64,000 bases of DNA from positions 52,266-116,265 of the forward strand of contig CAVYAN010000048.1 of NCBI GenBank assembly GCA_963766075.1, given 5' to 3'. Positions 9,595 to 51,100 of the stretch are shown piece by piece. This DNA comes from an uncultured cyanobacterium (GTDB lineage: Bacteria > Cyanobacteriota > Cyanobacteriia > Leptolyngbyales > Leptolyngbyaceae). A program made the position numbers and the translations under genes. The notes under the pieces are model-generated. The model made no database searches and was not told where the DNA came from. It worked only from the letters and a program-made list of their open reading frames with translations. The first letter of the stretch is position 1, and each line of letters begins with the position of its first letter.

Positions 9595-9620
9595 CCATGA
9601 ACAAATGGAGCTGGGGATAG

Positions 9621-12405: not shown

Positions 12406-12422
12406 GACTTTGCAAGCCACAC

Positions 12423-17947: not shown

Positions 17948-18243
17948 CCATAACCCGCTCAGGCGGGAGGATAGGCGATCGCAGCCAAAAGCTCTGCTGC
18001 GTCAAGGTCGATGCCGACAACACGGTTAATCCGGCAGTGTTCGCGGCGGAAGTGGCCAACGCTCAAGGGCGGCTCACTGGACCATTCCTGGTCGCCATCT
18101 CAGGGCATTGCCCCACTTGGGGTTACGCTCTCCTGGTTCATGCAGCCCATGCTAGTCAAGGCGTGGCGGTGTTTGATCCCAAGTGGGGATATGTCGTAGT
18201 TCAGTCCCACGTCCCTGGATTAACTGTGGGGTCAACTTTCTAA
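17941..18243 (+). CDS. csx3: Csx3/Crn3-like cyclic oligoadenylate ring nuclease, stand-alone
   Basis: 100 aa; VAISGHCPTWGYALLVHAAHASQGVAVFDPKWGYVVVQSH.PG..VG matches the Csx3 signature (SGRxPxWLY..L.H..H....VA.YDPRLG.VVV.SH). Confidence 0.8.
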   Translation: MLTITRSGGRIGDRSQKLCCVKVDADNTVNPAVFAAEVANAQGRLTGPFLVAISGHCPTWGYALLVHAAHASQGVAVFDPKWGYVVVQSHVPGLTVGSTF

Positions 18244-19624: not shown

Positions 19625-19801
19625 AGTTCTCGTTGGTTCTCGATTGTAGAAAAAGATGTAGTGAATCTGGCCGGATTCACCCTCTTAGTAATCCCCTTGC
19701 ACGAGAACAAGGCCCACCTTTTTTAGTGGCGTTTTATTCCACTCTGAAAAGGTCTTTTGCAAATTGTTTTGTTTTGTAAAGTTGATTATTGTGAGGCTGA
19801 T

Positions 19802-25434: not shown

Positions 25435-26019
25435 ATGACCACCATTACAGAACAGACCTACCGCGATCGCCGCCGACAGGTTTTGGATTGGATAAAAGCC
25501 AATCCCCAGCATTGGAACCAAGTCGATTGGCACTGCCAGACTAGCCATTGTGTCGCTGGCGTGGCTGAAATGTTTTCCTTGAACCTCGATCCCATGAGTC
25601 CGTCTGACTGCGAAACAGTCATTTACGACATGCTCAAGTCCGGTCTAAAGATTCCAACGCCTTTGCGGGCACGGGAATGGATGGGCCTGTCTGAGGCTCA
25701 AGCAGACACCCTTTTCGATGCTGACAACAGCCTCGGCTATATCGAGAAATTGTTCGGCTGCATCGATCCAATTCCAGACAGTTTTGAAAACCTCCCATCC
25801 TACTTGTTAGAGTTTATTGCCGCCTATCCCCGCTTGACGGAGGATCAGCTTGATCGGCTTGTAAAACATGAGGACTGGCAAGTGCGGGAGATCGCCGCCG
25901 CGCATCCTAATCTGACGGCCTCTAACATCGATCGGCTAATAGCCGATGAGGATTCAGATGTGCGGCTTACCGTTAGAAGGCATCCCCTCTTTAGCGGAGG
26001 CGTATGCAGCCCAACCTAA
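25435..26019 (+). CDS. Hypothetical protein with WHCxTxHCxAG motif and C-terminal LRV repeats
   Basis: WNQVDWHCQTSHCVAG; AAHPNLT...D.D.DVR. Confidence 0.65.
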   Translation: MTTITEQTYRDRRRQVLDWIKANPQHWNQVDWHCQTSHCVAGVAEMFSLNLDPMSPSDCETVIYDMLKSGLKIPTPLRAREWMGLSEAQADTLFDADNSLGYIEKLFGCIDPIPDSFENLPSYLLEFIAAYPRLTEDQLDRLVKHEDWQVREIAAAHPNLTASNIDRLIADEDSDVRLTVRRHPLFSGGVCSPT

Positions 26020-26981
26020 AAGACTACGATCGCATCCTGGTTGCGTTCAGTGGCGGCAAAGATTCAATCGCCAGCTACTTACACCTACTCGACTGCGGAG
26101 TCGATCCCAAGAAAATTGAATTGCATCACCATCTAGTGGATGGGCGCGAAGGGTCAACTTTATTCGACTGGCCTTGCACTGAAAGCTACTGCCGCGAAGT
26201 AGCCAAAATATATGGATTGCCCATTTATTTCAGTTGGCTTGAGGGCGGCCTAGAGCGGGAGATGTGCAGGGACAATCAGCCCAAGGCTCGAACCTGGTTT
26301 GAAACGCCCAATGGGCTTAAATCAACGGGTGGCAAAGGGAAGCCGGGAACCCGTCGCAAGTTCCCAGCTAAAGTACGTCAGCTCAAAGAGCGCTGGTGTA
26401 GCGCCTACGCCAAAATCGACGTAATGTCGGCAGCGATCGCGGGACAATCCCGCTTCAACCACACATGGACGCTGGTTGTCACTGGCGAGCGAGCCGAGGA
26501 AAGCCCAGGGCGGGCCAAGTATGCGGAGTTTGAGGAACACCGTTCAGACCGTCGCTCGGGCAACCTGCGCCGCCACGTTGACCACTGGCGTCCGGTTCAC
26601 AAGTGGGGTCGAAATAGGGTGTGGGAGCGCATGGCCGTTGAGGGTATCGTGGCGCATCCAGCCTATCACTTGGGGTTTGGCAGGCTGTCTTGCCAGCGGT
26701 GCATTTTTGGTTCGCCAAACCAGTGGGCCACAAATTTTCACATCTCACCCGCCGAGACGCAGCGCATGGCGAACTATGAGGATGATTTTCAGTTCACATT
26801 GGACAGAAAGTTTTCCCTGCCAGAGCTTGCCGCGAAGGGTACTGTCTATTCAGCGATCGCCCAAAACGAGGGAGCGCTTAGAGCCGCCCTGCGGAGGGAG
26901 TACGTGGATAGAATCCTCGTGTCTCCCGATGAATGGCAGATGCCTGCGGGAGCGTTCGGGGAAAACAATGGTCCAATCTAA
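26004..26981 (+). CDS. PAPS reductase (CysH)-family protein
   Basis: VAFSGGKDS PP-loop, RWCS...K, VTGERAEES..RA, WRPV..W, HPAY.LG.GRLSC..C. Confidence 0.88.
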   Translation: MQPNLKDYDRILVAFSGGKDSIASYLHLLDCGVDPKKIELHHHLVDGREGSTLFDWPCTESYCREVAKIYGLPIYFSWLEGGLEREMCRDNQPKARTWFETPNGLKSTGGKGKPGTRRKFPAKVRQLKERWCSAYAKIDVMSAAIAGQSRFNHTWTLVVTGERAEESPGRAKYAEFEEHRSDRRSGNLRRHVDHWRPVHKWGRNRVWERMAVEGIVAHPAYHLGFGRLSCQRCIFGSPNQWATNFHISPAETQRMANYEDDFQFTLDRKFSLPELAAKGTVYSAIAQNEGALRAALRREYVDRILVSPDEWQMPAGAFGENNGPI

Positions 26982-28236: not shown

Positions 28237-28600
28237 ATGATTAGCGAAGCCTTTCAATACAAAAGCCTTGGCCATGTCAAAGTGGTCGAAAATGTAAAAA
28301 ATGACCGCACGGGAAATCCGATCGTCCTAGTTTTTGTGGGACAAACAGAGGATTGTTTTTATCAGGAAGTTGTTGAGGGGGGGTGTTATCCGAGCGGGCG
28401 TAGAGGTTTACGGAACCTTTTACGCTTCCTACGAGCCGAGCGAGGGGAGGCGAAGCTGGGTTACGGAACATCGCTCCATGGACAGCGCCCTAGCCGCCCT
28501 GGAGGAAACCCTGGAGCTTATAAGGAGGCTAAAGAGCAGTAGCCCCTTTGGCCCGCCGCCTCTTCGGCCATGGCTCGCGCCTCAGTCTTTGGGAATTTAA
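28237..28600 (+). pseudogene. Frameshifted paralogue of 33700-34035 (G7 tract at 28377-28383)
   Basis: The N-half (ORF 28237) and C-half (ORF 28334 frame) align end to end with 33700-34035; removing one G restores the frame. Confidence 0.75.
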
Positions 28601-28617: not shown

Positions 28618-28860
28618 ATGATGAACTTTAGTGTTTTGTCAAGCGGTTTGGCCGCTCCCGTCAGGAAAAGTCTACCAGGAAGTCCAGAGGACGCCAAAGA
28701 ACGGCGATTGATGGCCATCCTGGCGATGCAAAAAACTGAGCGTAGGAAGCTGGGTTGTAGTTGTCCCCTTTTCCTGGCCAACGGTCGCTCCGAGAACCCC
28801 AGGATCGACATTGGCGATGATCGAGACTGCGAGTACTGCCACCCTATCAGGAGTTTCTGA
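28618..28860 (+). CDS. Small Cys-rich protein translationally coupled to cas8e
   Basis: AGGAGG RBS; CSC...CEYCH; TGATG overlap with the cas8e start. Confidence 0.6.
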   Translation: MMNFSVLSSGLAAPVRKSLPGSPEDAKERRLMAILAMQKTERRKLGCSCPLFLANGRSENPRIDIGDDRDCEYCHPIRSF

Positions 28861-29678
28861 TGAATTTACTAACCGATCCGTGGGTTCCGGTCCTGGAGCA
28901 AAACAATCGCCCTGGCGAGGCATCCTTGCTCCGACTGCTGACCGATGGCAGCATTTTGGATATAACTGGCCAGCCGATGACCAGGCTGGCCGTCCTGCGG
29001 CTGCTCATGGCCATGAAAGCATGGCGCGATCGCGGTGGTGATGACTTCCAGGAACAATCCTTCAGCCTGAGTACGTTCTTGCAAACTGCGTTGCCCGCAG
29101 AATGCAAGGGGCTACGCCCTGAGCTGATTATCCAAATGTCCGATAAAAACGGCGTGGCATGGTCCCCGACGCCGCGCAAGCCATCACCACCGGAGATTTT
29201 CGCTCAGGCTGTCGTCACGGCGTATTTCTGCGATCGCGGCGGACTGAAGGCCCGAGTCCCCGGCTTATCCATTTCGGGCCAAACACCGTTTCATGTAGGC
29301 ACCCAAGTCCGGATGGTGTCTGGGGAAACGGTCTTGGAGCGCCTCGACAATAATCCTGTTGATTGGGAGCCCGACGACTACCAGCCCCCGTGGGTGGGCG
29401 GCGTGAAATTTCCGGAAGGTAGCAAGCCGCGCCATGACTTAGAGCTGCTGCTCTGGCCATGGCGCAGAGTCTGCATTACGGACAATGGCGTTGTTGTCGC
29501 ACCAGGGGCGGTCATGTCCACCGAGGTGAAAGACCCTTGGGTGCTGGGGAAAGCGCTGGTGCGTCATTATCGTGACAAACCTGAGGAGGGATTTGAAATC
29601 ACAAATCTGGCCTTGCAGCAGGCGTCACCCTTGGCCTGCTGGATCTCTCGGCCCTGCAAACAAAGTGTCGTATTCTGA
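28860..29678 (+). CDS. cas8e: Truncated Cas8e (Cse1/CasA)-like subunit, 272 aa
   Basis: MNLLTDPWVPV N-terminus, RLAVLRLL, GETVLERL..N, PPW, L.WPWRRV and DPW motifs; about half the canonical length. Confidence 0.75.
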   Translation: MNLLTDPWVPVLEQNNRPGEASLLRLLTDGSILDITGQPMTRLAVLRLLMAMKAWRDRGGDDFQEQSFSLSTFLQTALPAECKGLRPELIIQMSDKNGVAWSPTPRKPSPPEIFAQAVVTAYFCDRGGLKARVPGLSISGQTPFHVGTQVRMVSGETVLERLDNNPVDWEPDDYQPPWVGGVKFPEGSKPRHDLELLLWPWRRVCITDNGVVVAPGAVMSTEVKDPWVLGKALVRHYRDKPEEGFEITNLALQQASPLACWISRPCKQSVVF

Positions 29679-29683
29679 AAACT

Positions 29684-30232
29684 ATGGAAATGGAAGCAGT
29701 TTTAACCAAAATCAGAGGAAGCCTAGGGCACAAAGCCGTCATGGCCGGTTTTGAACATTCCGAGTCCCCCACAGCCAGGGCGGATTGGAACATTTTGTTC
29801 CGGCATGACGGCGAAAATACGTTGATTCAGTCAACCGTTGCGCCGACTTACCGCCGTCCATTTGAACAAAAACCCCTCCCTCTCGATCCGATCGCGGGCG
29901 AGTCCTACTTTTTCAGGGTGGCTATTAACGCTATCTCCATTGAAAAGACCGAATCAGGACGGTCCAAGGAGGTGCGTTGTGACCCTGAAATTTGGCTGCA
30001 ATTCCAGCAGGCAAAGCGCGGCTTTGCTATAGAAAAACTCCTTTCTGCGGTTAGCGCTCCGATTGTCGAAACATCTGGAGGCCGCAGGTTTTTTGTCAAC
30101 CGTTTTCACATAGAAGGCGTTTTGATTGCTGAAAATGCCCAACTTTTGGGCAAAACGCTTCTCGAAGGACTGGGAAAATCCAGATCCTACGGATGCGGAT
30201 TGCTCTCCATCTTGCCCATTAATCAACCATAG
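29684..30232 (+). CDS. cas6e: Cas6e (Cse3/CasE) crRNA-processing endoribonuclease
   Basis: ILFR...LIQSTVAP, Y.FRV.IN, WL..Q...GF, EGVL, and the G-loop GLGKSRSYGCGLLSI. Confidence 0.9.
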   Translation: MEMEAVLTKIRGSLGHKAVMAGFEHSESPTARADWNILFRHDGENTLIQSTVAPTYRRPFEQKPLPLDPIAGESYFFRVAINAISIEKTESGRSKEVRCDPEIWLQFQQAKRGFAIEKLLSAVSAPIVETSGGRRFFVNRFHIEGVLIAENAQLLGKTLLEGLGKSRSYGCGLLSILPINQP

Positions 30233-31546: not shown

Positions 31547-31993
31547 ATGCCCTTCACAATGACCCTTTCCGGGCCAATGGGAGGCTTCGGAGATACACCC
31601 AGATTGGTGCATCGCTTTGTTCAGGAGGCTCCCCCGCGATCGGCCATCATCGGCCTAATTGCCAACGCCTATGGCCTGAGCCGCGACGATGATTTTGGGT
31701 TCCTAGATTCCCTGAGATTCAGAATCATTGAACAAAGCTCGGGTGAGGCTGTAGTTGATTTTCAGACGGTGCGGAATGCCGTCACCGTTGATGGTAAGCC
31801 GGGGCGGAATGCCATCACGTATCGGCACTATTTGCCAGACTACAAGCTGGTGTTGGAAGTTGATGGCCCGGAGGAATTGCTCAAGCAAGTGTTCCTCAAT
31901 CTGAAATATCCCCACCGACCGCTTTACATTGGACGGCGCTGTAATGTTTTAGATCGGCCTGTCGTTGCTGGGGATTTTCCAGGGATAGGATAA
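31547..31993 (+). CDS. cas5e: Short Cas5e (CasD), 148 aa
   Basis: LSGPMGGFG.....R.....PPRSAIIGLIANAYG..R; DFQTV; T.RHYL.D; L..P...LYIGRR. Confidence 0.88.
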   Translation: MPFTMTLSGPMGGFGDTPRLVHRFVQEAPPRSAIIGLIANAYGLSRDDDFGFLDSLRFRIIEQSSGEAVVDFQTVRNAVTVDGKPGRNAITYRHYLPDYKLVLEVDGPEELLKQVFLNLKYPHRPLYIGRRCNVLDRPVVAGDFPGIG

Positions 31994-31995: not shown

Positions 31996-33193
31996 TCTCC
32001 AAAAGTTGGAGGTTGGTCTGCATAGCATTGACTCAGCACGCTGACTCAGCACGCTCCACTCCAATCTTTGGAGGTCGATCTGGACAAGAGAGGCACTAAA
32101 TCAAGCTATTGGGAAGGCGGCAGATTACTGCACTCCAATCTTTGGAGGTCGATCTGCGCTACAGCTTATCCCTCGGCCACGCCGCCCATCTGCCCCGCCC
32201 TGCGGGGGTTGCTCTAGAATCTTGTTTCAAAATGTTTTGTGCCCCATCTACTGGGGGTTAATCGTACAAAAATTTTGATTAGATTGGGCACCGTTGCCCT
32301 ATCTAGCGGGGGTTACTCGTAAAAGCTCTACGAGGTTCAAGATGCTTTGTGCCCGCTTTGCGGGGTTCATCATGCAAAGATCGCGACCTGCCCTGAACTG
32401 TGCATTGCCCCAGCCTGGGGGGTTTTTAGGGCAACGATTTGATCGCCCCACCCCGTGGGGGTTTGTCGCAAGTAAACCGTGGACCGTGCGTTGCCCCAAA
32501 CTGTGGGGGTTTGTCGCAAGCTTACCTTAGCGCTCAGGGTTGCCCAATACCCCACCTTGTGGGGGTCCGTCCATCAGCGCGATGGAAGCCTGGGAGCGGT
32601 AAATAATTGCCCCGCACAGTGGGGGTTTATTGTACAAAGTCTCAGAGGTTCAAAATGTTTTACGCCCGCTCTGCGGGGTTTTTCAAGTAGTTCATGCGTG
32701 CTTTCACCCCACACCATGGGGGTTTATCGATGAACTCTAGTCATGCGTGCTTCCGCCCCATCTAATGGGGGTTTCTCACCGAGAACTTGGGAGAAGCCAT
32801 ATTTCCCCACCCGTGGGGGTTTATCCACCAGTCCGAACTTTTCATCCGCGATCGCCACTCCACGCCGTGGAGGTTTGTCACTCTCTGCGCTTACTGCGAT
32901 AGTGAACATTTCCCCACCTGCGGGGGTCGATCTTCTCCAGAGGGCAGCATCGCAAATAGGCTGGATTCACACCCTCTCTGAGGGGTTTTTCGTTCAACTT
33001 AACCAGCTCGAAATGGTATTGCTTGCTCCATGGCGTGGAGGTTTGTCAACAAAGTTGAGTGCGTCCCCACTTGTGGGGGTTCTTCTCTGGCCTTGGCCGT
33101 CTTTTTTCAGCCCCATGTTATGGGGGTTCTTCTCTGGTCAATAATCGACCCTCTCCACGCCGATCTGCACAGCCCCACCTATGGGGGTTAATC
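31996..33193 (+). CRISPR. Degenerate I-E-like CRISPR array, block 1 (23 repeats)
   Basis: Consensus RCCCCAC-N3-GTGGGG-GTTTRTC. Starts: 31996,32058,32132,32192,32241,32296,32351,32407,32445,32493,32549,32609,32664,32706,32755,32804,32857,32911,32971,33025,33064,33110,33172. Begins 3 nt after the cas5e stop. Confidence 0.85.
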
Positions 33194-33210
33194 CTTATCA
33201 GGAGAACTAC

Positions 33211-33483
33211 ATGGATAAAAAGCTGCTTATTTGTGTTTGTGAAAAATTCATCGACCTTGACACGGTTAGAGCACTGTTACGGGGTGATAGCGTTCGAGAT
33301 TCTTCCCTTGATCTCCTGTTTTTGCAGGAAGATTGCTTAGGCGGTAAATTTCGATTGCGAGGCGCAACAGAAGATTCAAAAACTTTTGTAGACTGCGAGT
33401 TCTCGTATCTTGAAACGAATGAAGAAGTTTATCTTGAAATAACCGCACTGAGAACCAGTCCGATCCTCGACTCCCTGCCCTGA
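33211..33483 (+). CDS. Hypothetical protein embedded between array repeats
   Basis: AGGAG RBS right after the repeat at 33172; the stop is followed by a near-identical repeat. Confidence 0.7.
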   Translation: MDKKLLICVCEKFIDLDTVRALLRGDSVRDSSLDLLFLQEDCLGGKFRLRGATEDSKTFVDCEFSYLETNEEVYLEITALRTSPILDSLP

Positions 33484-33490
33484 GAGCACA

Positions 33491-33682
33491 GCCCCACCTG
33501 TGGGGGTTTATCCATGATAGGGCTGCACATTCCTGCGGATACTTGCCCGCAATCGCGGGGTCAGTCCCGTTCCACAGGGAGGCACAATTTTTGTAGCCTG
33601 GTCACCCCGCCTTGCGGGGGTCGATCGCTTCCAGGCTAGTAGATACACTCTCTCTGAGTCTCCACTCCGTGGAGGTTTTATT
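33491..33682 (+). CRISPR. Degenerate array, block 2 (4 repeats)
   Basis: Repeats at 33491, 33545, 33604 and 33659. Confidence 0.8.
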
Positions 33683-33699
33683 CAAAACATAGGAGTCTT

Positions 33700-34035
33700 A
33701 TGCTTTACCAAGATTACGACTACGAAGCTGTTGGCGGCGTAAAAATCGCCAAAAACGCAGCAAACATACAAACGGGAAACAAAATAATGCTGGCCTTCCT
33801 AGGGCCAGATGAAGATTGCTACTACATTGAAGCCCTCCCCGATGAGGCTGGGATAATCCGCGCTGGCCGGGAAGCGGACGGCGATTACTACGCAAGCTTC
33901 GAGCCAGTGGTTGGGGAGAGCTGCTGTGTGAGGGAGCACTCCTGCATTGATGATGCCCTATCTGAACTGGAGGCTATTTTGCTCACCTTGGATCCGCCGC
34001 CGCAATGGCGATCGCCGCAAACGCTGGCGCTGTAA
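33700..34035 (+). CDS. Hypothetical protein inside the array; intact paralogue of 28237-28600
   Basis: CATAGGAG RBS directly after the repeat at 33659. Confidence 0.75.
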   Translation: MLYQDYDYEAVGGVKIAKNAANIQTGNKIMLAFLGPDEDCYYIEALPDEAGIIRAGREADGDYYASFEPVVGESCCVREHSCIDDALSELEAILLTLDPPPQWRSPQTLAL

Positions 34036-34057
34036 CTCGTGAAAATCCTAATGACCT

Positions 34058-34465
34058 ATGAAAATCCTGAACCTAGAAACGGGCGCAACAGCAACTATTG
34101 ACACCGAAAACATCCCTGAAGAAAATCGGTTAATTCCCGAGAATCCGTTAGACCTTTTGGCTTTGACTGCTTTTTGCATTCAGAGCAACTGTAATGGGGT
34201 GGTTTGGACGACGAACAGGCAAGAAGATGGCAGCATAAGCGTCATGCTTGACACCTTGGTTTTTGGATATGACGGCTTCGCCAAAACTACCGTAGGAATT
34301 CAACCTGCGGTCTTCGACCCGATGACTTTTATAGATCAGGAATCAGTTCATCTCACGTTCTGGGTTTCGTTAACCCACTGCAAACTTAAGCCAGAGGCGT
34401 TCTGGCTCACAAGCCTGCGCGGATTTCAGCAGACTAACATTGTGGGTTATCCCATCGTTTTTTAG
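34058..34465 (+). CDS. Hypothetical protein inside the array
   Basis: 135-aa ORF ending 11 nt before block 3. Confidence 0.65.
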   Translation: MKILNLETGATATIDTENIPEENRLIPENPLDLLALTAFCIQSNCNGVVWTTNRQEDGSISVMLDTLVFGYDGFAKTTVGIQPAVFDPMTFIDQESVHLTFWVSLTHCKLKPEAFWLTSLRGFQQTNIVGYPIVF

Positions 34466-34476
34466 CCCCATTTCCC

Positions 34477-34726
34477 GCCCCACTCAGTGGGGGTTTATCT
34501 CTAATGTTGACTGGAAATAAAAAGTGCTTCGCCCCACTCAGTGGGGGTTTGTCGGTAATCATCAGCGCCATAGTTCTTGCGCATCAAGCTCCACATCGTG
34601 GAGGTGCCTCGGCAAAAGCGCTAGCATGTCGGGCTGCCAGGTTGAATGCTCCACTCTGTGGAGGTGCTTCGGCAAAAGCACTGGTCGGTTGGCGATAGCT
34701 AGCGCTCCACGCCGTGGAGGTCTTTC
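34477..34726 (+). CRISPR. Degenerate array, block 3 (5 repeats)
   Basis: Repeats at 34477, 34531, 34588, 34648 and 34704 (CCCCAC/GTGGGG and CTCCAC/GTGGAG variants). Confidence 0.8.
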
Positions 34727-34772
34727 GACAACAGAAATTCAGACCGATACTTTATTCTTGGAGACTGAAATT

Positions 34773-35321
34773 ATGAAGCAACTAACATCCGTAACGCTCC
34801 CTTACGAGCAGTTTGCAGAGATCGCAAATTATGAAGTGGAGGGCTGCGTCGAGGCTGCCATTAGTCTGGGCTGTGCCGACTTCGCCAAGCGCGACATCCC
34901 AGACGGATCGGGCGCGTTCCCTGTCCACCTGAGCCTGAAAACACCAGAGGGTCGTTTTTTGGGATCGGGTGCGTATTGCGGATTCGTCCACGGCTTCGAT
35001 CAGGACATTTTAGAACGGCTTTGGCAGGCTGCTGGGGTCACCCTGGATGAGGATACTCTGTACCAGTCCTGCTTTGATGTCAACATAGGCACTCATGAAG
35101 ATAATCACGGCGCTGTCTGCGAGGACTGCCTGAGAGCGGGAGGAGGGGTCTATATCGAAGGATCGGAAGATACTCCGTGGGAGTCACTGAGCGAGCTTGA
35201 TCGCCTCGGGCTTACTTTTCGCCGTTTGCTGCCAGAGAGCGATCGCGCAGTCTGTTGGTCATGTAGGCAAATGATTGACGAGTCAATCGCGTCTGCTGCG
35301 GAAAATTGTGCCGCTGAGTGA
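34773..35321 (+). CDS. Hypothetical protein with two CxxC pairs, inside the array
   Basis: GGAG RBS before ATG at 34773; VCEDC...VCWSC. Confidence 0.7.
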   Translation: MKQLTSVTLPYEQFAEIANYEVEGCVEAAISLGCADFAKRDIPDGSGAFPVHLSLKTPEGRFLGSGAYCGFVHGFDQDILERLWQAAGVTLDEDTLYQSCFDVNIGTHEDNHGAVCEDCLRAGGGVYIEGSEDTPWESLSELDRLGLTFRRLLPESDRAVCWSCRQMIDESIASAAENCAAE

Positions 35322-35414
35322 GCCTTGACCCCAACCCAGTCGTGACAGTTCTGGAGTTAAAGAATCCCGGCAACGGGACTGGCAAAATTCATCAAAGCCA
35401 GTAAGGAGAACAAC

Positions 35415-35699
35415 GTGAACATCAAGTCTTGCGCGATCGCCATCAATAGCGGAGAGGACGCCCACGCATCCATTCTGGCCATGTGTCAGCAGCTAGACAT
35501 AGCCAATCTGCCTGAGCCTGAAGACAAAATGCGCCAACTGGCGTACACGGAAAGCGGACTAAGGGTCGCTTTGATGTTGAATCACCAATGGATTCAGGCT
35601 CGGGCGGAAAAACTGATTCAGCCTTGCTTCAATCGGATTGCTACTGAGGAGTTTGGCGTGGGTATGCGTCAAACTCGCGCAATGGTCGCACATGATTAA
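35415..35699 (+). CDS. Hypothetical protein
   Basis: AAGGAG RBS, GTG start. Confidence 0.6.
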   Translation: MNIKSCAIAINSGEDAHASILAMCQQLDIANLPEPEDKMRQLAYTESGLRVALMLNHQWIQARAEKLIQPCFNRIATEEFGVGMRQTRAMVAHD

Positions 35700-35722
35700 C
35701 CAGTGAACATAGGAGTTGAAAA

Positions 35723-36787
35723 GTGAAAATCAATCGCCCAGTTGGAGTACTACTGCCAATTCATGAAACGTATTACGGGGATATAAACCCTGGCGATCTA
35801 AACAGTTTCTTGGCTTGTGCCGGAGAAGCGTTGCGAACGTTCGGGTTCTCTCGGATCGAAACCTTAAACCCTGACACAGACCGAGAGCGGGAGCTGTGGG
35901 GCGTTGGCGAAATCTTGGTCCAGTCGGATGAGATTACGAGCTGGGATGACGGCAAAGATGTGGGGATAACGGTTGATTGGCTTGACCTAATCGACGCCGA
36001 TTCAGACGAAATATTGAAGGTTCTAGAATCCACATGGATGAAGGAACCGGCGATCGTGGCGATGAACTATCTCGAAGAAGATGGCTACAAAGACCGTGGA
36101 AACTCCGAGTTTGGAGTAGTTCGCTCCTACAGGCATCACAGTCAGGAATTTGTCCCAGGAATTCCCCTTTCTAGGTTTTTGAGCGAGGGATGGGTAAAAG
36201 AGCAGCCTAGCAGCAAGGCAAGCATCAGTGTAGCCCCTGGCGGGGGGATTCAAGTCCCGCGAGAACTTGACTTTGTTCGATGCTGGGAGCTTTTTGAACG
36301 CCAGTCGCTAGACAACCCTAGGTGTTTTGAGTATCGGCAGGTATGCCTCACTGAGGATTCTCGCTACAGAAAATGGGTAGAGCAGGGCTATCCTGCCTTT
36401 TCGGTAAACTTTTCCGACTCTCAGCGCCGTTTTGTCAACGAAGCAAAACTATCGGAAAGAGCGGCATTTGTTCACTCGATAGTAAGCCGCCCATCCGAAT
36501 TCCAAAGGCTGGTATCGGAGTTTGGGCATACCCTTGCTGTCGGCCACTCAGTCTGGATCTGCACGGATGCAGAAGGCCGCGAGGGATTTTATATGTGGCG
36601 AACCGAAGGGGGCTGGCACGGGGCTCAATTCGGAGTGCAAGAGCTGAAAAGGCTTGGAGTGAGCGATCGCTTTGAAAAGCTGAGGGAAACTTTAAGTATC
36701 GAAACGAAAGGATTTCCTGTAGCCGGAGAGGGCGTTGGCAGATACGCCGATGTGGAATTCCTCAAATCTACGGGATGGTTTGAGTAG
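35723..36787 (+). CDS. Hypothetical protein inside the array
   Basis: CATAGGAG RBS; 354 aa; stop 12 nt before block 4. Confidence 0.75.
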   Translation: MKINRPVGVLLPIHETYYGDINPGDLNSFLACAGEALRTFGFSRIETLNPDTDRERELWGVGEILVQSDEITSWDDGKDVGITVDWLDLIDADSDEILKVLESTWMKEPAIVAMNYLEEDGYKDRGNSEFGVVRSYRHHSQEFVPGIPLSRFLSEGWVKEQPSSKASISVAPGGGIQVPRELDFVRCWELFERQSLDNPRCFEYRQVCLTEDSRYRKWVEQGYPAFSVNFSDSQRRFVNEAKLSERAAFVHSIVSRPSEFQRLVSEFGHTLAVGHSVWICTDAEGREGFYMWRTEGGWHGAQFGVQELKRLGVSDRFEKLRETLSIETKGFPVAGEGVGRYADVEFLKSTGWFE

Positions 36788-36799
36788 TTGATCCTCAGC

Positions 36800-37176
36800 A
36801 CCCCACCTTGTGGGGGTTTGTCAAAGTTTATAAACGGGCTGCGGTATTTATTGGCGACTTAAAGCCTTTGCCCCACGCCGTGGGGGTTTATCAACGGTCT
36901 GCGGCAGCCTTGTGACGTAAAGCCTTCGCCCTACACTGTGTAGGGGTTTATCTTCGATCCAACTCTATTGGCTTAACGGCTCTCTTTGCCCCACGGTGTG
37001 GGGGTTTATCTTTGCTCCAACTCTACCAGCTTAACGGCTCTCTTTGCCCCACGGTGTGGGGGTTTATCAAACGGTTCTATAGCCAAATCAACCCTCACCC
37101 CGCTCAGTGGGGGTCTATCTTTACGGCAGCAAACCCCCACCGGGCTTACATCACCCCACACTGTGGGGGTGCGATC
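36800..37176 (+). CRISPR. Degenerate array, block 4 (7 repeats)
   Basis: Repeats at 36800, 36870, 36928, 36988, 37046, 37097 and 37153. Confidence 0.85.
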
Positions 37177-37250: not shown

Positions 37251-37569
37251 GCCGCGATCGCCACTGGTCGCGGCTTTTTTTATGGAGAAACCCCAAAATG
37301 CAAACCAAAATCACCAAATCTAAAGCCGCCGAAATCGCCCAGAACCTGATAGAGGAAGGCGAGGAAAACACAGGAGTCTGTCTAGCCTGCGGAGAAGTCC
37401 ATGAAGGGATTGAGCCCGATGCCCGCGAGTATAAATGTGAAGCCTGCGGTCAACATAAAGTTTACGGATCAGAAGAAATTCTTCTAATGTTCGGACCTGC
37501 CAACTTCTAAAAACCACTGAATGCAGACTGCCGCGATCGCCACTGATCGCGGCTTTTTTATGGAGAAAA
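37251..37569 (+). repeat. Duplicated HIP1-containing hairpin + T-tract + RBS element (37251-37290 and 37530-37569)
   Basis: GCCGCGATCGCCACTG(G/A)TCGCGGCTTTTTT(T)ATGGAGAAA, present twice. Confidence 0.75.
37298..37510 (+). CDS. Small Zn-ribbon protein
   Basis: GVCLACGE...IEPDA..YKCEACG...VYG.EE.L. Confidence 0.75.
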   Translation: MQTKITKSKAAEIAQNLIEEGEENTGVCLACGEVHEGIEPDAREYKCEACGQHKVYGSEEILLMFGPANF

Positions 37570-37819: not shown

Positions 37820-38183
37820 TGAGGTCTTGGACATTGAATGGTTGGACAAAGTGGGTGACCCGCTCACAGTTGCCACAACCATTTGTGGAATTGTGAACGG
37901 TTCGATTTGTGCGAAAGAAATCCTAGAAAAGTCAGAGGGTGTATTCCCAAACCCAATCGACAAGCTATCTATACCTGAACAGAAGTTGTTTGCTATCAAT
38001 GATGTCATCCAAGGTTTTGGGACGGAAGCCGCTTGGCTGGACGACAGCTCAGACTATCCCAGCGCCGAGTATATCGACGTTGGAGATCCCTATGTAGCAA
38101 CCATTCTGTATGACTACCAGACTGACACCTTTCAGGTTACCTGCTTAGCAGATTGGCTTAACCCACAGGAGAAAGCAGCATGA
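37809..38183 (+). CDS. Hypothetical protein
   Basis: Y.DVGDPY.ATILYD motif; operon packing. Confidence 0.65.
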   Translation: MLIDEVLDIEWLDKVGDPLTVATTICGIVNGSICAKEILEKSEGVFPNPIDKLSIPEQKLFAINDVIQGFGTEAAWLDDSSDYPSAEYIDVGDPYVATILYDYQTDTFQVTCLADWLNPQEKAA

Positions 38184-41100
38184 TTAGCGTTGCCAGAGTC
38201 CGCGAGATTGAACAAGTACTAGAAGCAAAAGCGGATGAGTACAAAGGAATAAGTAGGATTACATTCCCAGAGATCTTAAAGTTTGTGCTCCTTAAAGAGG
38301 CAAATATTCTCGATCAGATCGATTTCGATATTGTTGAGGAATTCGTACTTGAAACATTCAACGACTTTCCTGAAGAGTTCATCGCCAAACTCAAGGAGAA
38401 ATACCCCGAAATCCTCGGACTGGAAAAGATTCTGGAAGAAGCCGATCCCAAAGACGTTCGCGCAGAGATCGAAGCCAATTCAACCCTAAACGACGAACTG
38501 GGATTAGTCCCTCAGATGGCTCGAATGCCAGAGGAAGAACTGTTCAAGCTGCTGATCGATTACGGCTTGCTTCCCAGCTTCAACCTCTACGACCTCCAAT
38601 CCAATCGCACCGACAATAAAAACCTTGAAACCCCCACAGAGCAATGCTTAACACCGCCCGCGACCACTGCAAAAACCGTCGCCGGCGACGGTGCAAAACC
38701 GCCAAACCCTCATCCAGAAAGCACCCTGGAAACAGTGCCCATGACAAACGAAGTCGTCAATTACCGTTACCGCGTAGAGGCTGCCCTAACAGCGATCTCT
38801 GCTGTCGTCAGAAACCAGGGCCAAAACTACACAGAAGCGATCGCCCAGTTTGGTGGATGGGGCTCGCTGAGCCGATTGTTCACCGAGCGGCCTGACATGC
38901 CCGAATGGGAGAAACGGGCTTGCGGCACCCTGAAGGGACTCCTAAGCCCACAGGAATACGCTTCTGCACGGAATCTGACCCTTAACAGCTTCTACACCAG
39001 TCCCGAGGTTATCAGGGCGATCTGGGCGTTCGTTTTGTCCACTGGATGGGAAGGTGGCGAAGTGCTTGATCCAGGATGCGGCACCAGGCGGTTTTGGCAG
39101 TACGCCCCAGAAGCGGCACGCCAGATCGCCACTGGCTACACAGGCGTTGAAAAGGACTACACAACCCACCTTATGGGGCTCGCCTTAACCCCTCTGGACG
39201 ACCAAGGAAAGAGTCTCAATGATTTTTCCGAGCATGGCGACTTCCTCACATGGGCCACCGATCTCCAGTATCACCTGGTGATCGGCAACTTCCCTTTTGA
39301 AGATGGCGTAACGGCAGGCGTCCCGGACCTTGGCTTTGGCCTCAAGGTGGCTTTGCATGGCCGCTTCCTGCTGCGTGCACTTAGTCATCTGCGCCCTGGC
39401 GGCTTGCTGGCCGTCATCACCAGTCCGGGCCTGATGGACGGCAGTTCAAAAGCCTACCAAGGGCTCCGAGCCCGTGTAGAAGCTATGGCGGTGTTCCTGG
39501 GGGCTGTGCGGCTCCCAGAACAGACCCACGCCAGTTCTGGTACGGAGTGCACCAGCGACCTAATCATCTTGCGCAAGCGATCGCCCGCTGACAACGCGGA
39601 TAACGAATTCACCGAGGCTAGTGTGCCGTGGCAAAAAGTTTACACATCCCCCAAACTTAATGCCTACTGGAGCGCAAACCCCACCCACCACCTTGGTCAA
39701 TTTGTGCCCAACCGCACCCGTGGCGGGCAGGGGGCGGGCGCAAGATGGACCGGCAGCTATGCCGAACTGATTTCCGCACTCAACCAAGCACTTAAATCAA
39801 TCCAGGAGAACTATATGTCCAGAATCAGAAAGACCCGTGACGACAGCCCAAAGACAGGCTGGCAGCACGTTGAGGTGACCTACAATGCCGAGCAGGATGG
39901 GGTTGAAATTCGCTTCTCAGATGCGATTCCCAAGATGATCAGCGGATTGCTGGGCTGGGCCGGATTCAAATTCCATCGCGACAAGTTCTGGTGGGTGAAG
40001 GTGTCACCAGAGGTTCAGGGTTGGTTGCAGAACTCATTTGAGGAAATCCTCCTGAACGCTGGGTACGAAGATGTCCCAGAAGACGAGCGATCGCTGACCG
40101 CCAAGGGGTTTGCCTCCTGCGAGGAATATTTTGTAATTCCCTCACTTCAGCCGCCAGTCCAAGCGGCTGACCTCCCTCCCTCCGCAGAAGAGCCGCAGAA
40201 AGCTGGCGGAATAGAACCTTGGGCCTTCAGCTCAGAGGGGGCGAAGCTACTGCGACAAACCTTTGAGAAACGCGAGTGTGTCGAGCCAGTAGTAGAAATC
40301 CCAGCACACCCTACCCCTGGATCGACCCTGCGTCAGGTTGAGCCGTATTTCGTCAGATCGCAGTTTTTTGGCGCTTACAAGCGCTCAAAGATTGAAGAGT
40401 ATGAGCGGGATCTGGTAGTAGCACTGAACAACGATCCGGCATCCATAAGGCACGAGTTGCTCAGAATCACCTACGAACTTTTGCTGCCGACTGAAGAAGA
40501 ATATCTAGCGTTCACTCAGGCGCTAACGCAAACCCGCGACTGGATGTTTCACATGGGTGGATCATCCTCCCTGCACGAGACTGATTATCCAAACTTGAGC
40601 CCTGAAGAGGAACAGGAATGGCGGAAATACCGATTTGGCGATAACTGCCTTATGGTCCGCGCACCGCAAGACATTCCGCGCCACATGGATTTTGTGGTCA
40701 ACCCCGAGGGGAACACTTACGCCAAATACGTGTACACCAGTCCCATTCCGGTCGAAGCTCCTACAAAGGAAACCTACCAATCGATTCTCCATGGCCCGAC
40801 CGAGGAAGAATGGATAGCGAAACAAACCGCTCAGGCTCAAGCCCAGGAGCCCGAGCCTGAAACACCGCCCGTCACTGGATTCGACCTTGACGACTTTTTC
40901 TCAGACATCATGGGCCTGGTCGCTGACGCAACTCCCCCTGAGCCCTGGATGAAAGATGCCGTGCAAGCACAGCTTGAGGAATTGGCGAAGCGCCCGCGCA
41001 TTCCCTCGTTTCGAGCAACCCTGACAACAAAATGGATACCTTTGCTGAACTTCCTGAACCTGGGAAGTTTGTTGGGAATGCTCACGATGGGACAAAAGCT

Positions 41101-41254
41101 TGCTGAACTAAAGCGACAATCCCCCGATATTCCTGGCCTCGATCCCTTGTCCAAAGAGATGCTTGAGATGCTAGCGCGGCTCAACATCTTCCCCGAACAG
41201 GGAGGGGCGATCTCAAAACCCGCAGGACAGGGAGGGGCGATCGCAAAAAAGTAA
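38180..41254 (+). CDS. Multidomain protein containing a DarB-type adenine methyltransferase domain
   Basis: FGGWG, L..LLSPQEYASAR..TLNSFYTSPEVI, VLDPGCGT, VIGNFPF, LRPGGLLA.ITS, FLGAVRLP, SDLIIL.KR. Confidence 0.8.
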   Translation: MISVARVREIEQVLEAKADEYKGISRITFPEILKFVLLKEANILDQIDFDIVEEFVLETFNDFPEEFIAKLKEKYPEILGLEKILEEADPKDVRAEIEANSTLNDELGLVPQMARMPEEELFKLLIDYGLLPSFNLYDLQSNRTDNKNLETPTEQCLTPPATTAKTVAGDGAKPPNPHPESTLETVPMTNEVVNYRYRVEAALTAISAVVRNQGQNYTEAIAQFGGWGSLSRLFTERPDMPEWEKRACGTLKGLLSPQEYASARNLTLNSFYTSPEVIRAIWAFVLSTGWEGGEVLDPGCGTRRFWQYAPEAARQIATGYTGVEKDYTTHLMGLALTPLDDQGKSLNDFSEHGDFLTWATDLQYHLVIGNFPFEDGVTAGVPDLGFGLKVALHGRFLLRALSHLRPGGLLAVITSPGLMDGSSKAYQGLRARVEAMAVFLGAVRLPEQTHASSGTECTSDLIILRKRSPADNADNEFTEASVPWQKVYTSPKLNAYWSANPTHHLGQFVPNRTRGGQGAGARWTGSYAELISALNQALKSIQENYMSRIRKTRDDSPKTGWQHVEVTYNAEQDGVEIRFSDAIPKMISGLLGWAGFKFHRDKFWWVKVSPEVQGWLQNSFEEILLNAGYEDVPEDERSLTAKGFASCEEYFVIPSLQPPVQAADLPPSAEEPQKAGGIEPWAFSSEGAKLLRQTFEKRECVEPVVEIPAHPTPGSTLRQVEPYFVRSQFFGAYKRSKIEEYERDLVVALNNDPASIRHELLRITYELLLPTEEEYLAFTQALTQTRDWMFHMGGSSSLHETDYPNLSPEEEQEWRKYRFGDNCLMVRAPQDIPRHMDFVVNPEGNTYAKYVYTSPIPVEAPTKETYQSILHGPTEEEWIAKQTAQAQAQEPEPETPPVTGFDLDDFFSDIMGLVADATPPEPWMKDAVQAQLEELAKRPRIPSFRATLTTKWIPLLNFLNLGSLLGMLTMGQKLAELKRQSPDIPGLDPLSKEMLEMLARLNIFPEQGGAISKPAGQGGAIAKK

Positions 41255-41445
41255 CCCCGCCGCGCCAGCCACAACAGGAGGTAACCCCTCCCGCAAGCCG
41301 CAAAAGGATTGCCAAGAAAGTTTCTCTAGAGGGTGGACAGCAAAAACAGAAGTCACCCTCTAGAGAAAAGGCCAGAAAGCAGCGTGGCGGCGCGGCGACA
41401 AAGGCTCCAACACTAGGAGATGACGCTCCTGTCTTCCTCCGAGTC

Positions 41446-42078
41446 ATGGAGTTGGTAGACACAAAATCCTACCCTGGATGCTTAGCCGTCCATGAGGGCA
41501 GGCTCGGCCTATCGTTCTATGGGTTGACCATGCCCATTGAGCTGCGGATCGGAGAGAAAACAATCACTTGCGATCGCCGCACCTTCCAGCCGCTAATCGC
41601 CTCTCCGGAGCGGATTGCCGCAACGGAGAGGCTCCTCATCATCTGGGGGCGCTGGCAACAGGTGATTCAACACGATTCAGCAAATCAGGTTGAGTCGGTC
41701 GGGCTTCGCGGCGCTTTGAACAGAGCCTATGACGACTTTGTTCAGGAGTATGGCCCTCTGGTGGAAAATCAGGCGCTACTGCGGTTTCAAAAAGTGCAGG
41801 ATCCACGGCTCGGCCTGCTTCTGGCTCTAGAGACAAAGGATGGTGAAAAAGCTGAGATTTTTTACAAGCGCGTTCACCATCCGCCGCCACGGCTCGGCGA
41901 ACAAATTTACTTCGATGCCGACATTCGCGATCGCTTATCTCAGGCATTTCCTAGGGTTTTAAGTGAGCGTGGTTCAATCGAAATCGATGAGATTGCCGCC
42001 GCGTGTGGGATTGACGCCGAAACCGCAGAGGACGAACTGGTTCAAATGGGCCTAGTCGTGCGGGAACCGCTTGTTTGA
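41446..42078 (+). CDS. Middle segment of a DarB-like methylase/helicase (frame open from 41167)
   Basis: LRGALNRAYDDFVQEYGPL...LLLALE....KAEIF.KR...L.ERG.I.I..IA...G. Confidence 0.7.
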   Translation: MELVDTKSYPGCLAVHEGRLGLSFYGLTMPIELRIGEKTITCDRRTFQPLIASPERIAATERLLIIWGRWQQVIQHDSANQVESVGLRGALNRAYDDFVQEYGPLVENQALLRFQKVQDPRLGLLLALETKDGEKAEIFYKRVHHPPPRLGEQIYFDADIRDRLSQAFPRVLSERGSIEIDEIAAACGIDAETAEDELVQMGLVVREPLV

Positions 42079-45033: not shown

Positions 45034-45299
45034 ATTCTCAAATTAAGTGTCGCAAAGTCAGCGAATTCTCACATTAGGTGTCGCTAAACCTGCAATTCTC
45101 ACATTAGATGTCGCTGAATCGGAAAATTCTCAAATTAAGTGTCGTCGAGCTGAAAAATTATCACATTAGATGTCGCAAAGTCAGAGAATTCTCAAATTAA
45201 GTGTCGCAAAGTTGGGAAATTATCACATTAGATGTCGCTAAGCCTACGATTCTCAGATTAAGTGTCGCTGAATCAAGTGATTCTCACATTAGATGTCGC
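45034..45299 (+). repeat. Nine iteron-like direct repeats, 30-31-bp period
   Basis: Core ATT(C/A)TCA(A/C/G)ATTA(AG/GA/GG)TGTCG(C) at 45034,45065,45095,45126,45157,45188,45219,45249,45280. Confidence 0.9.
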
Positions 45300-45326
45300 T
45301 GAGTCAGGCAATCGCTAGGAGGGCTA

Positions 45327-48110: not shown

Positions 48111-51100
48111 ATGACTATCGCTTATAGACTGGTTCCCGCTCCCCTTTACTACAGTGGCGATGTTCGCGAAAAGCTGGAGAAAGCCCAAGCCGCAGCCGAA
48201 CAAGATGAGCGCTTCAAAGCAAATGTAGAACAACTTCTGGCAGTCCAGCCGCCGATGATTGGACTGGCCAATATCGAAGTCGGGTTCAACGCGCTCTGGA
48301 TACCGACCATTCTTCTAGAAAGGTTCATCTGGGACACACTCGGAGTGTCCGCAACGGTGAACCGATGCAGTGTTGCATCGGCCACCGAAATCGAAATTAA
48401 GAATCATCCCAGAACCTACGAAAACACGACGCAGTACGGCATTCGATGGGAAGACCAAAAGTCGGACAAGAATGGTCGCTTGCAGACGGTTGAATGTAGC
48501 CTGACAGGGGTGGAACTCATTGAGATGTCCGCCAACTTTAAGCACCCCAAAATCACGCAGAACACCCCGATTGGACGCCAACTCAACCCAGCCCTGACCG
48601 CTGGGGCGCGGCAAATCCAGATGAACCTAGAGGTAGCGTGGCGCGAATGGCTCAATGCCGACTCAGAGCGCCGCTGGAAGCTTGAGGAACTCTACAATCG
48701 GAGCTACAACGCCTTCAAGCTAGTCGATTGGTCCGGCGAGCATCTCACTTTGCCGGGGATGTCCGAAACGTGGCGGCGGCGGATGCGCCTGTGTCAGCTC
48801 GGGGCAATTTACCAGGGCACGCTGGGGAATGTCGGAGTCTTTCATGAGGTTGGCCTAGGGAAAACCGTCATCGGGGCTGCGATCGCCATGGAGCGAAAGC
48901 GGCTAGACCCCACCACGAAGACGGTGATCGTCGTCAAAAAGTCTACTTTGCTCCAGTACCCGCAGAAGTTTCGGGCGGCATACCCAAATGCCAATCTGCT
49001 GGTGGCCACGATGGATGACTGCAACGCGGGCAATCGCCAACTGTTCCTTGCCCGTGCGGCCACGGGGAGCTATGACGCGATCGTCATGACTCATCAGACT
49101 TTTGAGAAAATCGCCGTGAAGACGGAAACCTTGGTCAATGTGATCGAGCAACGCCTTGACCTCATCCAACGGGCAATGGAAGCGCATGAAAAACGGCGCA
49201 AAGAAGAAGGCAAGCGCGGGCGGAAGACTGCTGTGATGAAAGCGCTGGAGCGCAAGCGCAATCGCCTAGAGGCCAAGTTGGAATGGGCACAGGGCAAGAA
49301 AGATGTGGGCCTGACCTTCGAGGATTTAGGGATCAACCTGATTATTGCCGACGAAGCCGATGTGTACATCAACGGCGACATCGAAACAAAACTGACGGAC
49401 GTGAAGGGGCTGAACTTCTCCGACTGCGCGATCGCCGACGACTTCCAGCTAAAGTGCGACATTTTACGCGAGAGATATGGCTCGGGCCGCATCATCCTGA
49501 TGACCGGCACCTTCTACCGCAACGGCTTAGCTGATTTGTACGTGATGCAGCGCCTGCTGCAAGCAGATTTACTCAAAGACTGCGGGATTAACTGCTTTGA
49601 CGACTGGCTAAGCCTGTTTGGCAAAGTTCAGACCGCCCCAGAGATTGGCATTACGGGGCAAATCGCGATGACCAGCCGCCTCAACGACTTCACGAACTTG
49701 CCAGAGCTGATGCAGATGTTCACGCAGACGGCGAACATCAAGCGCTATGAGCAAGTGGCCGGGGCCGACATGAAGCGGCCTACACCCCGGTATGTAGACG
49801 TGGCTTGTCCCATGTCTGACTACCAACTGAGCTACATGGAGGCGCTGGTACGGCGGGCCGATGCCGTGAAGAGGGGTAATCCTGCCATTCTGGGCACCCG
49901 CAGGCTACCCGATGGCACAATCGTGGACAAGTACGACTGCCTGTTTTTGATCAGCACCGATGGTCGAAAGGTCAGCCTGCATGAGGAAATGGTCCAGCAC
50001 AACCACCCCATTGGCCGCAATGCTGGGTCAAAGCTGCGGCAATGCGCAGAGAACGTTTTCAAGCACTGGCAGGAAACTCACGCGGACCTCGGCACACAGC
50101 TTATCTTCCTCGATATGGGCACGCCAGGGGGTAAGGGCTTCGACACCTACAAGGATCTGAAAGTGCAGCTCATGGTGATGGGCATCCCCGCCGAACAGAT
50201 TCAGTTCATGCAGTCCTACAAGTCGGACGATGACAAGAGTGCATTGTTTGCCCGAGTCAACGCGGGCGAAGTGCGGGTGTTGATCGGCAGCACCGAAACC
50301 ATGGGCATCGGTGTGGATGTGCAGGATCGGATTTGTGCGATGCATCACCTCGATTGCCCGTGGAACCCAGCCAAACTGGAGCAGCGTGAAGGGCGAGGGA
50401 TTCGCAGTGGCAACCGCTTCGATATAGTCAGCATCTACCGCTATGTGACCCAAGGGCGCTCCGGCGCTGGGGCGCATAACTGCGGATTCGACAGTTTCAT
50501 GTGGCAAGTCGTTCAGAACAAGTTGCACATACTGAAACGCCTACTGCAAGGCGATCCCAAGATTCGGCGGCTCTCCGAGCAAGAAGACGCGCCGGTCTTC
50601 AGCGCCTCGGAAATCAAAGCCTTGGCCACAGGCGATCCCCGAATCATGCAGTACGTCGCGCTGGAGGATGAACTTGCGCAGGCAGAGCGGCTCTACAGCT
50701 CTGTGCAGAACGACCTCAACATGCTGGAGGACGGCAGAAACGGAATCAAGTTCACAACCGTCAAGATGCAACGGGACAAAGAAAAGCTTGCGGAATACAC
50801 GGCAGATTATGAATACGTGGTAAAACATGAGCAGCGTCAGCCCAAGATTGTCATCCTTGGAAACGAGTACTACGACGTCAAAGCGGCAGCGATCGCCCTC
50901 GCCAAGAATTGCGTGGAGCCGCTTTCAGAAAGTGAAGATCCCCCAGAATGGCGGAAAGTAGGCGACTACCAAGGATTCAAAATCCTGGTTTACGCCGCAA
51001 AAGGCTACAGGAGTCAAGTCTATCTAGAGAGTCCTACAGGCAACTCCTACGAGGTAGGGTTTTACAAAACCCCCGAGGTCATGGCTAGCCGCATGAAGGA

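Follow-up and report, generated by a model that had tools for sequence, protein, structure and literature searches.

The 64,000-nt stretch of DNA analysed here (the window) corresponds to positions 52,266-116,265 of contig CAVYAN010000048.1 (C48) in the cyanobacterial genome bin GCA_963766075.1 (G000, 85% complete). It carries a phage-borne, degenerate type I-E-like CRISPR array of 39 hairpin units (31997-37168), which follows four cas genes and is interrupted by six open reading frames (ORFs). Judged from sequence, and with moderate confidence, the locus is interpreted as a nuclease-free phage Cascade whose guides are carried in a long mRNA together with the ORFs, would be released by Cas6e cutting, and would silence host defence genes.

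Units were located with the hairpin pattern C(C/T)C...G(G/A)G followed by GT, which leaves positions 6 and 7 of the repeat handle outside the pattern. The 39 units recur with periods of 38-74 nt, and three gaps interrupt the array: 305 nt after unit 23, 803 nt after unit 27 and 2081 nt after unit 32. The statement of the preliminary description that six ORFs interrupt the array in three places was confirmed, including all of its ORF coordinates. The blocks (from the hairpin search) and the ORFs are as follows.

31997-33194, + strand: array block 1, units 1-23
33211-33483, + strand: ORF A (90 aa), between the near-identical units 23 and 24; predicted 319-nt Cas6 product
33486-33682, + strand: array block 2, units 24-27; unit 27 lacks the T6/C7 handle signature
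33700-34035, + strand: ORF B (111 aa); a homolog with 78% identity exists elsewhere, and a paralog with a frameshift lies upstream of cas8
34058-34465, + strand: ORF C (135 aa), a singleton 90% cluster without a clear ribosome-binding site (RBS); B and C together form a predicted 818-nt Cas6 product
34478-34727, + strand: array block 3, units 28-32
34773-35321, + strand: ORF D (182 aa), of a Cys-rich family with invariant CxxC and CWSC
35415-35699, + strand: ORF E (94 aa), with 93-94% homologs
35723-36787, + strand: ORF F (354 aa), with a 72% full-length homolog; D, E and F together form a predicted 2096-nt Cas6 product
36801-37176, + strand: array block 4, units 33-39; the terminal unit 39 lacks the handle signature

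Applied to the whole genome, the hairpin search yielded 0.09 sites per kb, and it detected no second array in G000; therefore, the array is not a product of chance. The hairpin and handle pattern of type I-E is present, but repeat identity averages only 0.59-0.64 and the ordinary spacers (n = 35) are 11-46 nt long, whereas a typical I-E array has near-identical repeats of ~28 nt with an 8-nt handle and spacers of ~32 nt. The array hairpins co-vary, and several spacers are duplicates of one another. BLAST searches of the array against phages and plasmids returned chance-level matches only, and an Rfam scan of the array gave no match at E 0.1.

ORFs A-F are real genes, with the lowest GC content at codon position 2 in all six and with full-length homologs for five of them (92-100% identity for A, D and E, 78% for B, and 72% for F). 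We infer that they are ordinary phage accessory genes lodged in the array transcript. Their homologs are recorded on Joint Genome Institute contigs of 119,846, 117,082 or 8,623 nt, and Cas7 proteins of the 85%-identical cluster on contigs of equal sizes, so these contigs are taken as presumed sister phages. No matches for ORFs A-F were obtained with Pfam and PHROG, and the atlas searches gave no usable family. ORF D is one member of a larger Cys-rich family (12 matches); its structure model was good (predicted local distance difference test, pLDDT, 87) and had no Foldseek match at E 0.001 and a best Z of 3.8, which does not show a new fold. The model of ORF F was unusable (pLDDT 35). The frameshifted paralog of ORF B (28237-28597, + strand) shares the 9-nt RBS motif of ORF B and is not flanked by repeats; hence, the ORF B family does not need repeats. 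The frameshift of the paralog lies near a run of G, and may reflect phase variation or an assembly error.

Handle position 6 is T in 37/39 window units and in 144/155 repeats of the phage clade to which the window locus belongs, versus C in 725/729 host I-E repeats. Among the relatives, the T6/C7 signature was found in 153/157 internal repeats versus 8/36 block-ending ones. The window follows the same pattern, with T6 in 35/35 internal units versus 2/4 block-ending units; the exceptions are unit 27 (before ORF B) and unit 39, and units 23 and 32 (before ORFs A and D) keep intact handles. Handles are conserved where a spacer follows and decayed at block ends, which places selection mainly on the guides. 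Since a handle is of use only with a guide behind it, the spacers are probably loaded guides, and the block-ending repeats probably serve mostly as the closing hairpin of the preceding guide.

The array is preceded by four cas genes.

28860-29678, + strand: short cas8e (272 aa; Pfam Cse1, E 1.9e-12; PADLOC Cas8e)
29684-30232, + strand: cas6e (182 aa; Pfam, PADLOC), with His16 and a Gly-rich loop
30241-31545, + strand: cas7e (434 aa; Pfam), whose product is placed by the tree in the phage-associated clade
31547-31993, + strand: short cas5e (148 aa; Pfam, PADLOC), with the stop codon 3 nt before the first hairpin

All four type I-E effector genes (cas8e, cas7e, cas5e and cas6e) are intact, those for Cas8 and Cas5 being shortened. 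The Cas8e profiles match the N-terminal ~52 aa only of the 272-aa product, and full-length homologs of this short Cas8e (~300 aa) are present in the clade. Cas6e retains the invariant His16 and the Gly-rich loop. The Cas3-HD profile (PF18019) had no match in G000, in which the phage contig is complete, or in three related phages from IMG/VR (G388-390). The Cas1 profile (PF01867) had no match in G000, and no Cas2 was detected among the 72 window ORFs scanned. The Cas11 (Cse2) profile (PF09485) matched in none of the four genomes (G000 and G388-390), although it is insensitive and recovered only 1 of 14 controls; the cas8-cas6 gap is too small for a Cas11 gene, and a 96-aa gene without assignment precedes cas8. 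No second cas7 was found in G000. The locus is derived from type I-E and is an incomplete member of it, no Cas3 or Cas1 having been found. A gene for 215-240 aa, oriented divergently to cas8 and situated upstream of cas6, recurs in related loci (L012:8604-9320, L013:782-1465 and L093:8603-9247). One copy shows a weak match to an SfsA restriction domain, and the gene was not found in G000; it is a possible nuclease partner that the window phage lacks.

Contig C48 is a complete temperate cyanophage genome of ~115.7 kb. Its ends share a 514-nt terminal repeat with 509 identical positions, and it encodes a major head protein, portal, maturation protease, tape measure, tail fibre, and ParA/ParB, together with an integrase, RadC, methylases, an SNF2 helicase, and a Csx3 homolog. 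The density of the HIP1 (highly iterated palindrome 1) motif in C48 (1.4 per kb) equals the median of the G000 bin.

In the proposed mechanism, the array would have no leader and would be transcribed within a long phage mRNA holding the cas genes and ORFs A-F. The phage Cas6e would cut at the 3' base of each hairpin and yield ~40-75-nt guides for Cascade, and the same cuts would set free three ORF-containing fragments of 319, 818 and 2096 nt, each with a Cas6-bound hairpin at its 3' end. As is generally known of Cas6, the 3' hairpin and the 5' end may stabilise such ORF-bearing pieces. The cuts would be maintained mainly for the guides, with the stabilising or dosing of messages as a second benefit. 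One RNA probably yields both guides and messages.

The arrangement of the genes is compatible with this scheme. The first hairpin lies 3 nt after the cas5 stop codon; for the stop codons at 33483, 34465 and 36787, after which repeats had been described as resuming within 7-12 nt, the measured distances to the hairpin are 8, 12 and 13 nt, the last slightly outside that range. The predicted cuts lie 24, 25 and 53 nt before the ATG of ORFs A, B and D, respectively. The best promoter scores before these three ORFs (6.0, 5.2 and 6.3, with approximate weights) fall between the background median and the 90th percentile, versus 8.7 and 8.3 for two genes beyond the array. A consensus promoter scan found 4 sites versus 7.1 expected, and gaps in the operon upstream of the array do not exceed 137 nt. 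The low promoter scores and the tight operon fit one transcript, without proving it. As to promoters belonging to the ORFs themselves, which the preliminary description regarded as evidence against its proposal, some genes that follow repeats in G388/G389 carry a promoter and a terminator of their own; upstream of A, B and D, no promoter rises above the background. Its proposal that Cas6e cuts the polycistronic transcript appears likely in view of the His16 and Gly-rich loop of Cas6e, the lack of promoters above background before A, B and D, the tight operon, and the placement of repeats in the relatives. That the system belongs to a phage and is without Cas3, and that one guide has a target, had escaped the preliminary description.

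The Cas7 proteins related to that of the window (20 proteins, 37-100% identity) stand apart as a clade. In a quick tree of 50 rows, 22 clade Cas7 rows formed one side of a branch with a Shimodaira-Hasegawa-like approximate likelihood ratio test (SH-aLRT) value of 100, sister to chromosomal cyanobacterial I-E Cas7; the protein of the window phage groups beside cyanobacterial sequences. Short Cas8 and Cas5 are common to the loci of this clade; G388-390 are among them, and each of these three phages shows 23-29 exact matches to the motif, in scattered clusters. Repeat clusters begin within 16 nt after a co-oriented stop codon in 26/57 cases versus a null of 3-6%, and in 20/51 cases when the four window clusters and two inside cas6 are left out; many lie at 6-7 nt and after non-cas genes. 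Repeats are found before cas6 in L012, with an array between cas7 and cas5, and between cas6 and cas7 as well as after cas5 in G388-390. In the relatives, repeats stand 24-45 nt upstream of the cas5, cas6 and cas7 starts. Repeats at gene boundaries are a trait of the phage Cas7 clade. Sense-strand repeats also occur within cas6 (L013:1481, L015:2476), cas8 (L119:4913-4946) and an upstream gene (L018, L050:1152), in three lineages, and at L086:~1600 within a coding sequence of a clade cas operon. These in-gene repeats suggest Cas6 autoregulation by cutting of its own mRNA. For the clade as a whole, it is possible, and is put forward tentatively, that a type I-E system has been turned into a self-contained, host-orthogonal RNA programme, in which Cas6e sites punctuate the phage mRNAs (behind stop codons, ahead of RBSs and within cas genes), Cas6e matures and doses messages and regulates its own operon, and guides silence non-CRISPR host defence operons such as Bub with a Cascade free of Cas3 and Cas11.

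Each of the three related phages has, late in its main array, a spacer that matches a site ~200 nt downstream, within the 3' end of that phage's integrase gene (L092:8711 to 8913, L093:13644 to 13847, and L094:6421 to 6624), behind AAA and with scores of 42, 28 and 38.5; self-regulation of integration is possible.

The proposed silencing of a defence gene derives from spacer 25.

33568-33599, + strand: spacer 25, matching G000:C103:3175-3206 (minus strand) in bubB (Prok-E2_E), behind AAG

Pairing extends to 23 of the 27 non-sixth positions. The score of 43 exceeds the maxima of 35 among 195 shuffled spacers and of 34.5 for real spacers at 13 other protospacer-adjacent motifs (PAMs); the binomial expectation is 4.5e-4 with AAG and 0.033 without it, and the spacer pattern was found in 1 of 301 genomes. 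AAG is the canonical I-E PAM (PMC10120712). The guide pairs with the non-template strand of bubB, described as the effective one for a transcription block by I-E Cascade (PMC4288209), and silencing in E. coli is reported to proceed without Cas11 (PMC12235044). Cascade without Cas3 would bind DNA, leave it uncut and block transcription, so that guide 25 would silence bubB of a putative antiphage Bub operon. The C103 operon encodes Multi_ubiq (a ubiquitin-like protein, Ubl), Prok-E2_E, Prok-JAB+ThiF, DUF6527, HTH_3 and Peptidase_M78/capP, the last two as a CapH/CapP-type pair. It matches Type I Bub, which comprises Ubl and E2, a JAB-E1 fusion and DUF6527, often with CapH and CapP (PMC11601596); in C103, Ubl and E2 are in separate ORFs, unlike the fused BubAB of the Type I Bub described in that source, where the antiphage function of Bub is inferred from context only. 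No bubB match of spacer 25 was found in 7 other Prok-E2_E loci. An exact scan of viral sequences with the spacer 25 pattern returned one match, in an unrelated-looking phage and with poor pairing beyond the pattern, and it was treated as chance.

Several other spacer matches were recorded. Among 152 weak spacer matches, AAG occurred 6 times versus 2.1 expected, which is similar to shuffle noise. The best AAG match of spacer 21 falls in capP of the same C103 operon; its score (27.5) equals the background, the co-location has p ~0.04, and the match is a hint only. The candidate target of spacer 10 (GAG, an amidohydrolase gene) was rejected, as the score did not exceed the controls. The L013:3798 spacer of a relative matches G000:C61:26100, in a conserved HAD-family gene behind AAG, with the first 15 nt perfect; its score of 36.5 versus a control maximum of 35 is no more than a hint of host-gene targeting. 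Self-matches of the window spacers within the phage scored at most 30.5, and the only site with seed and AAG (window 24464) lies 4.4 kb upstream of cas8; no match to a cas or creT promoter next to a PAM, as in CreR/Cracr mini-arrays, was thus obtained.

A number of observations weigh against the interpretation as a silencing system fed by one transcript. The expectation for spacer 25 rises to 0.17 when the PAM is disregarded and matches are counted over all 32 positions. The bubA gene on C103 reads as frameshifted (L170 ~2990), and C103 is a 5.5-kb contig with the lowest HIP1 density of 126 contigs, so it may be mobile or misbinned. No clear target was found in G000 for 38 of the 39 spacers; the relatives' 109 unique spacers gave no clear AAG excess against G000, and three L119 spacers matched only themselves in their own metagenome-assembled genome. 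The promoter scans are weak tests, two of the best-scoring sites of the window lying within the array or within ORF C. Canonical cyanobacterial I-E arrays also start near a stop codon (24/31 within 30 nt, 1/31 within 16), so read-through into the array from the operon is ancestral, not new. Finally, G388-390 are close kin, and the counts from the relatives are thus not independent.

Other explanations assign the repeats a different role. They might be kept in order to set ORF expression, through maturation and stabilisation of the RNase III kind or because Cascade on a handle-bearing mRNA covers its RBS. The intact handles of units 23 and 32, 24 and 53 nt before ATG, would suit such dedicated post-transcriptional control, as would the relatives' repeats shortly upstream of cas5, cas6 and cas7 and the apparent Cas6 autoregulation. 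It is nevertheless rather unlikely, since block-ending handles are mostly decayed, including those before ORF B, L012 cas5 and G388-390 cas7, the ORF B paralog keeps its RBS motif without a repeat, and the hairpins flanking the ORFs are no stronger than the remaining hairpins of the array. The same handle loss weakens the earlier idea that Cascade loads onto RBS-bearing 5' ends, which may still hold for ORFs A and D with their intact handles. Capture of gene cassettes, with the repeats as integration or recombination points and ORF A as a recent giant spacer with repeat duplication, is unlikely. The copies bracketing ORF A (33167-33194 and 33486-33513, units 23 and 24) do have 26/28 nt identical by eye and score 0.93, a tied second among 38 adjacent pairs, and none of the 666 non-adjacent pairs reaches 0.90. 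In one sister, ORF A was annotated as a longer gene that runs through units 22-23, which implies the same repeat context as in the window, with the same loop base as the downstream copy; ORF A is 94-100% identical to its homologs versus 85% for Cas7 and 72% for ORF F. However, the near-identity reported for bracketing repeats holds for ORF A only, the brackets of B-C and of D-F scoring 0.62 each, and two further neighbour pairs with only a spacer between them score 0.97 and 0.93, so local duplication also explains the resemblance. Moreover, no Cas1 was found in G000, and no inspected gene gain or loss in the relatives is bounded by two repeats. Of 49 variable segments in G388-390, 7 have both ends near a repeat: four resemble changes of spacer content, judged by size and repeat count, and the other three represent two events, namely a slot for a promoter-gene-terminator moron with one repeat directly in front of it, and a deletion that starts at a terminator and stops at a repeat. 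The earlier proposal of recombination points is thus poorly supported, and only ORF A perhaps resembles a gene inserted recently together with a duplicated repeat.

If the array were decaying and had neutrally taken up morons equipped with promoters, Cas6 cutting would be irrelevant to the ORFs and the bubB match would be a chance find or a relic. Although the repeats are very degenerate, several spacers are mutual duplicates, 38 of 39 spacers lack a target, and a promoter-gene-terminator moron directly follows a repeat in G388/G389, neutral decay is very unlikely given T6 in every internal handle, the co-varying hairpins, four intact cas genes, and the lack of promoters above background before A, B and D. 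It is highly improbable that the hairpins are intrinsic terminators or attenuators, or Racr-like decoys for host I-E proteins, instead of guides for the phage complex. Terminator-like units number 31 versus 12.3 expected, and one G390 deletion joins a terminator to a repeat; yet only 2-6 T occur within 8 nt after the stem, handle position 6 differs from that of host I-E, and no other cas7 was found in G000.

In engineered Csy4/Cas6 mRNA processing, a Cas6 hairpin placed in a message reportedly leads to cutting of the message and alters its fate, and the early RNA of phage T7 is processed into messages by RNase III. To our knowledge, Cas6 acting on messages and guides nested in protein-coding transcripts are known mainly from engineering; if cutting occurs, the window locus would supply a natural example, in which it is tied to guide production. 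If the preferred interpretation of a phage Cascade fed from its own mRNA is true, guides nested in protein-coding transcripts and the action of Cas6 on messages occur naturally, and a very compact four-gene Cascade with a handle unlike that of the host would provide an orthogonal silencer for cyanobacteria. A guide against bubB would be independent evidence for an antiphage Bub, so far only inferred (PMC11601596), and, with host strains sequenced, the remaining 38 guides could lead to additional defence genes. Neither this clade nor the processing of genes out of an array was found described in the literature, of which subscription journals and supplements were outside the coverage; classification papers or supplementary tables, e.g., those of PMC7162821, may already list such loci.

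The closest described systems differ in several respects. Effector-only CRISPR-Cas systems of huge phages (Al-Shayeb et al. 2020, PMC7162821) are likewise phage-borne and without Cas1/Cas2, many lack an interference nuclease, and host-gene repression has been proposed for them. Unlike these, the window locus belongs to a ~116-kb temperate phage and combines an I-E-derived four-gene complex with 39 degenerate units, genes inside the array, and a defence-gene target; the phage arrays are compact, with a median of six repeats, and no genes within arrays are described in the available part of that paper. Chromosomal cyanobacterial I-E systems share the sister Cas7 clade, the same hairpin type, and an array just after the last cas gene, whereas the window has no found cas3, cas11 or cas1, short Cas8 and Cas5, T6 for C6, and repeats dispersed among genes. 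Cracr/CreR RNAs (10.1101/2024.10.29.618823; PMC10120712) resemble the window in degenerate repeats, short spacers, partial pairing, the AAG PAM, and anti-defence silencing by phage RNAs; however, as far as the available texts describe, Cracrs use host Cas proteins and target cas or creT promoters, in contrast to the window phage with its own Cascade and a target inside a non-CRISPR defence gene. The type I-F system of ICP1 is also encoded by a mobile genetic element and directed against host defence, but it has adaptation and cleaves; plasmid type IV-A acts by nuclease-free transcriptional repression, but with its own effector genes and DinG (PMC11656645). Unlike in the window, no genes inside the array are described for either in the available text of PMC11656645. 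A derived I-E module of Streptomyces (cas5-6-7-8, PMC8730458) has the same four genes without cas3, and differs in the STAND NTPase and the lack of an array according to the available text; two actinobacterial Cas7 rows, not necessarily of that module, fall outside the phage clade in our tree. A type V system that a phage directs against other mobile elements has been reported (10.64898/2026.04.20.719267), and inter-element conflict may be a further possible use of the untraced guides.

Beyond the CRISPR locus, the window contains other candidate cargo and repeats.

17941-18243: Csx3 homolog (Pfam and PADLOC)

This Csx3 homolog we take to be a candidate ring-nuclease inhibitor of type III CRISPR signalling. 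Further likely anti-defence cargo lies at 38180-42078, 48111-51305, 19757-20494 and 26004-26981; the proteins of this group are an N6 methylase with a DarB-like match, an SNF2 helicase, a RadC/JAB protein and a PAPS-reductase-like protein. Just beyond the array, a near-identical pair of hairpins containing HIP1, with a T run and the same RBS (37251-37274 and 37530-37553), stands upstream of consecutive small genes. Intergenic repeat families at 9461-9606 (4 x 33 nt), 12372-12711 (3 x 114 nt) and 45034-45303 (3 x 116 nt) are candidate operators, an origin or repeated promoters. A 1399-aa protein (57338-61537, minus strand) contains five 201-nt repeats and a 141-nt pair; its family matches are weak and below the cut-off, and it is probably structural.

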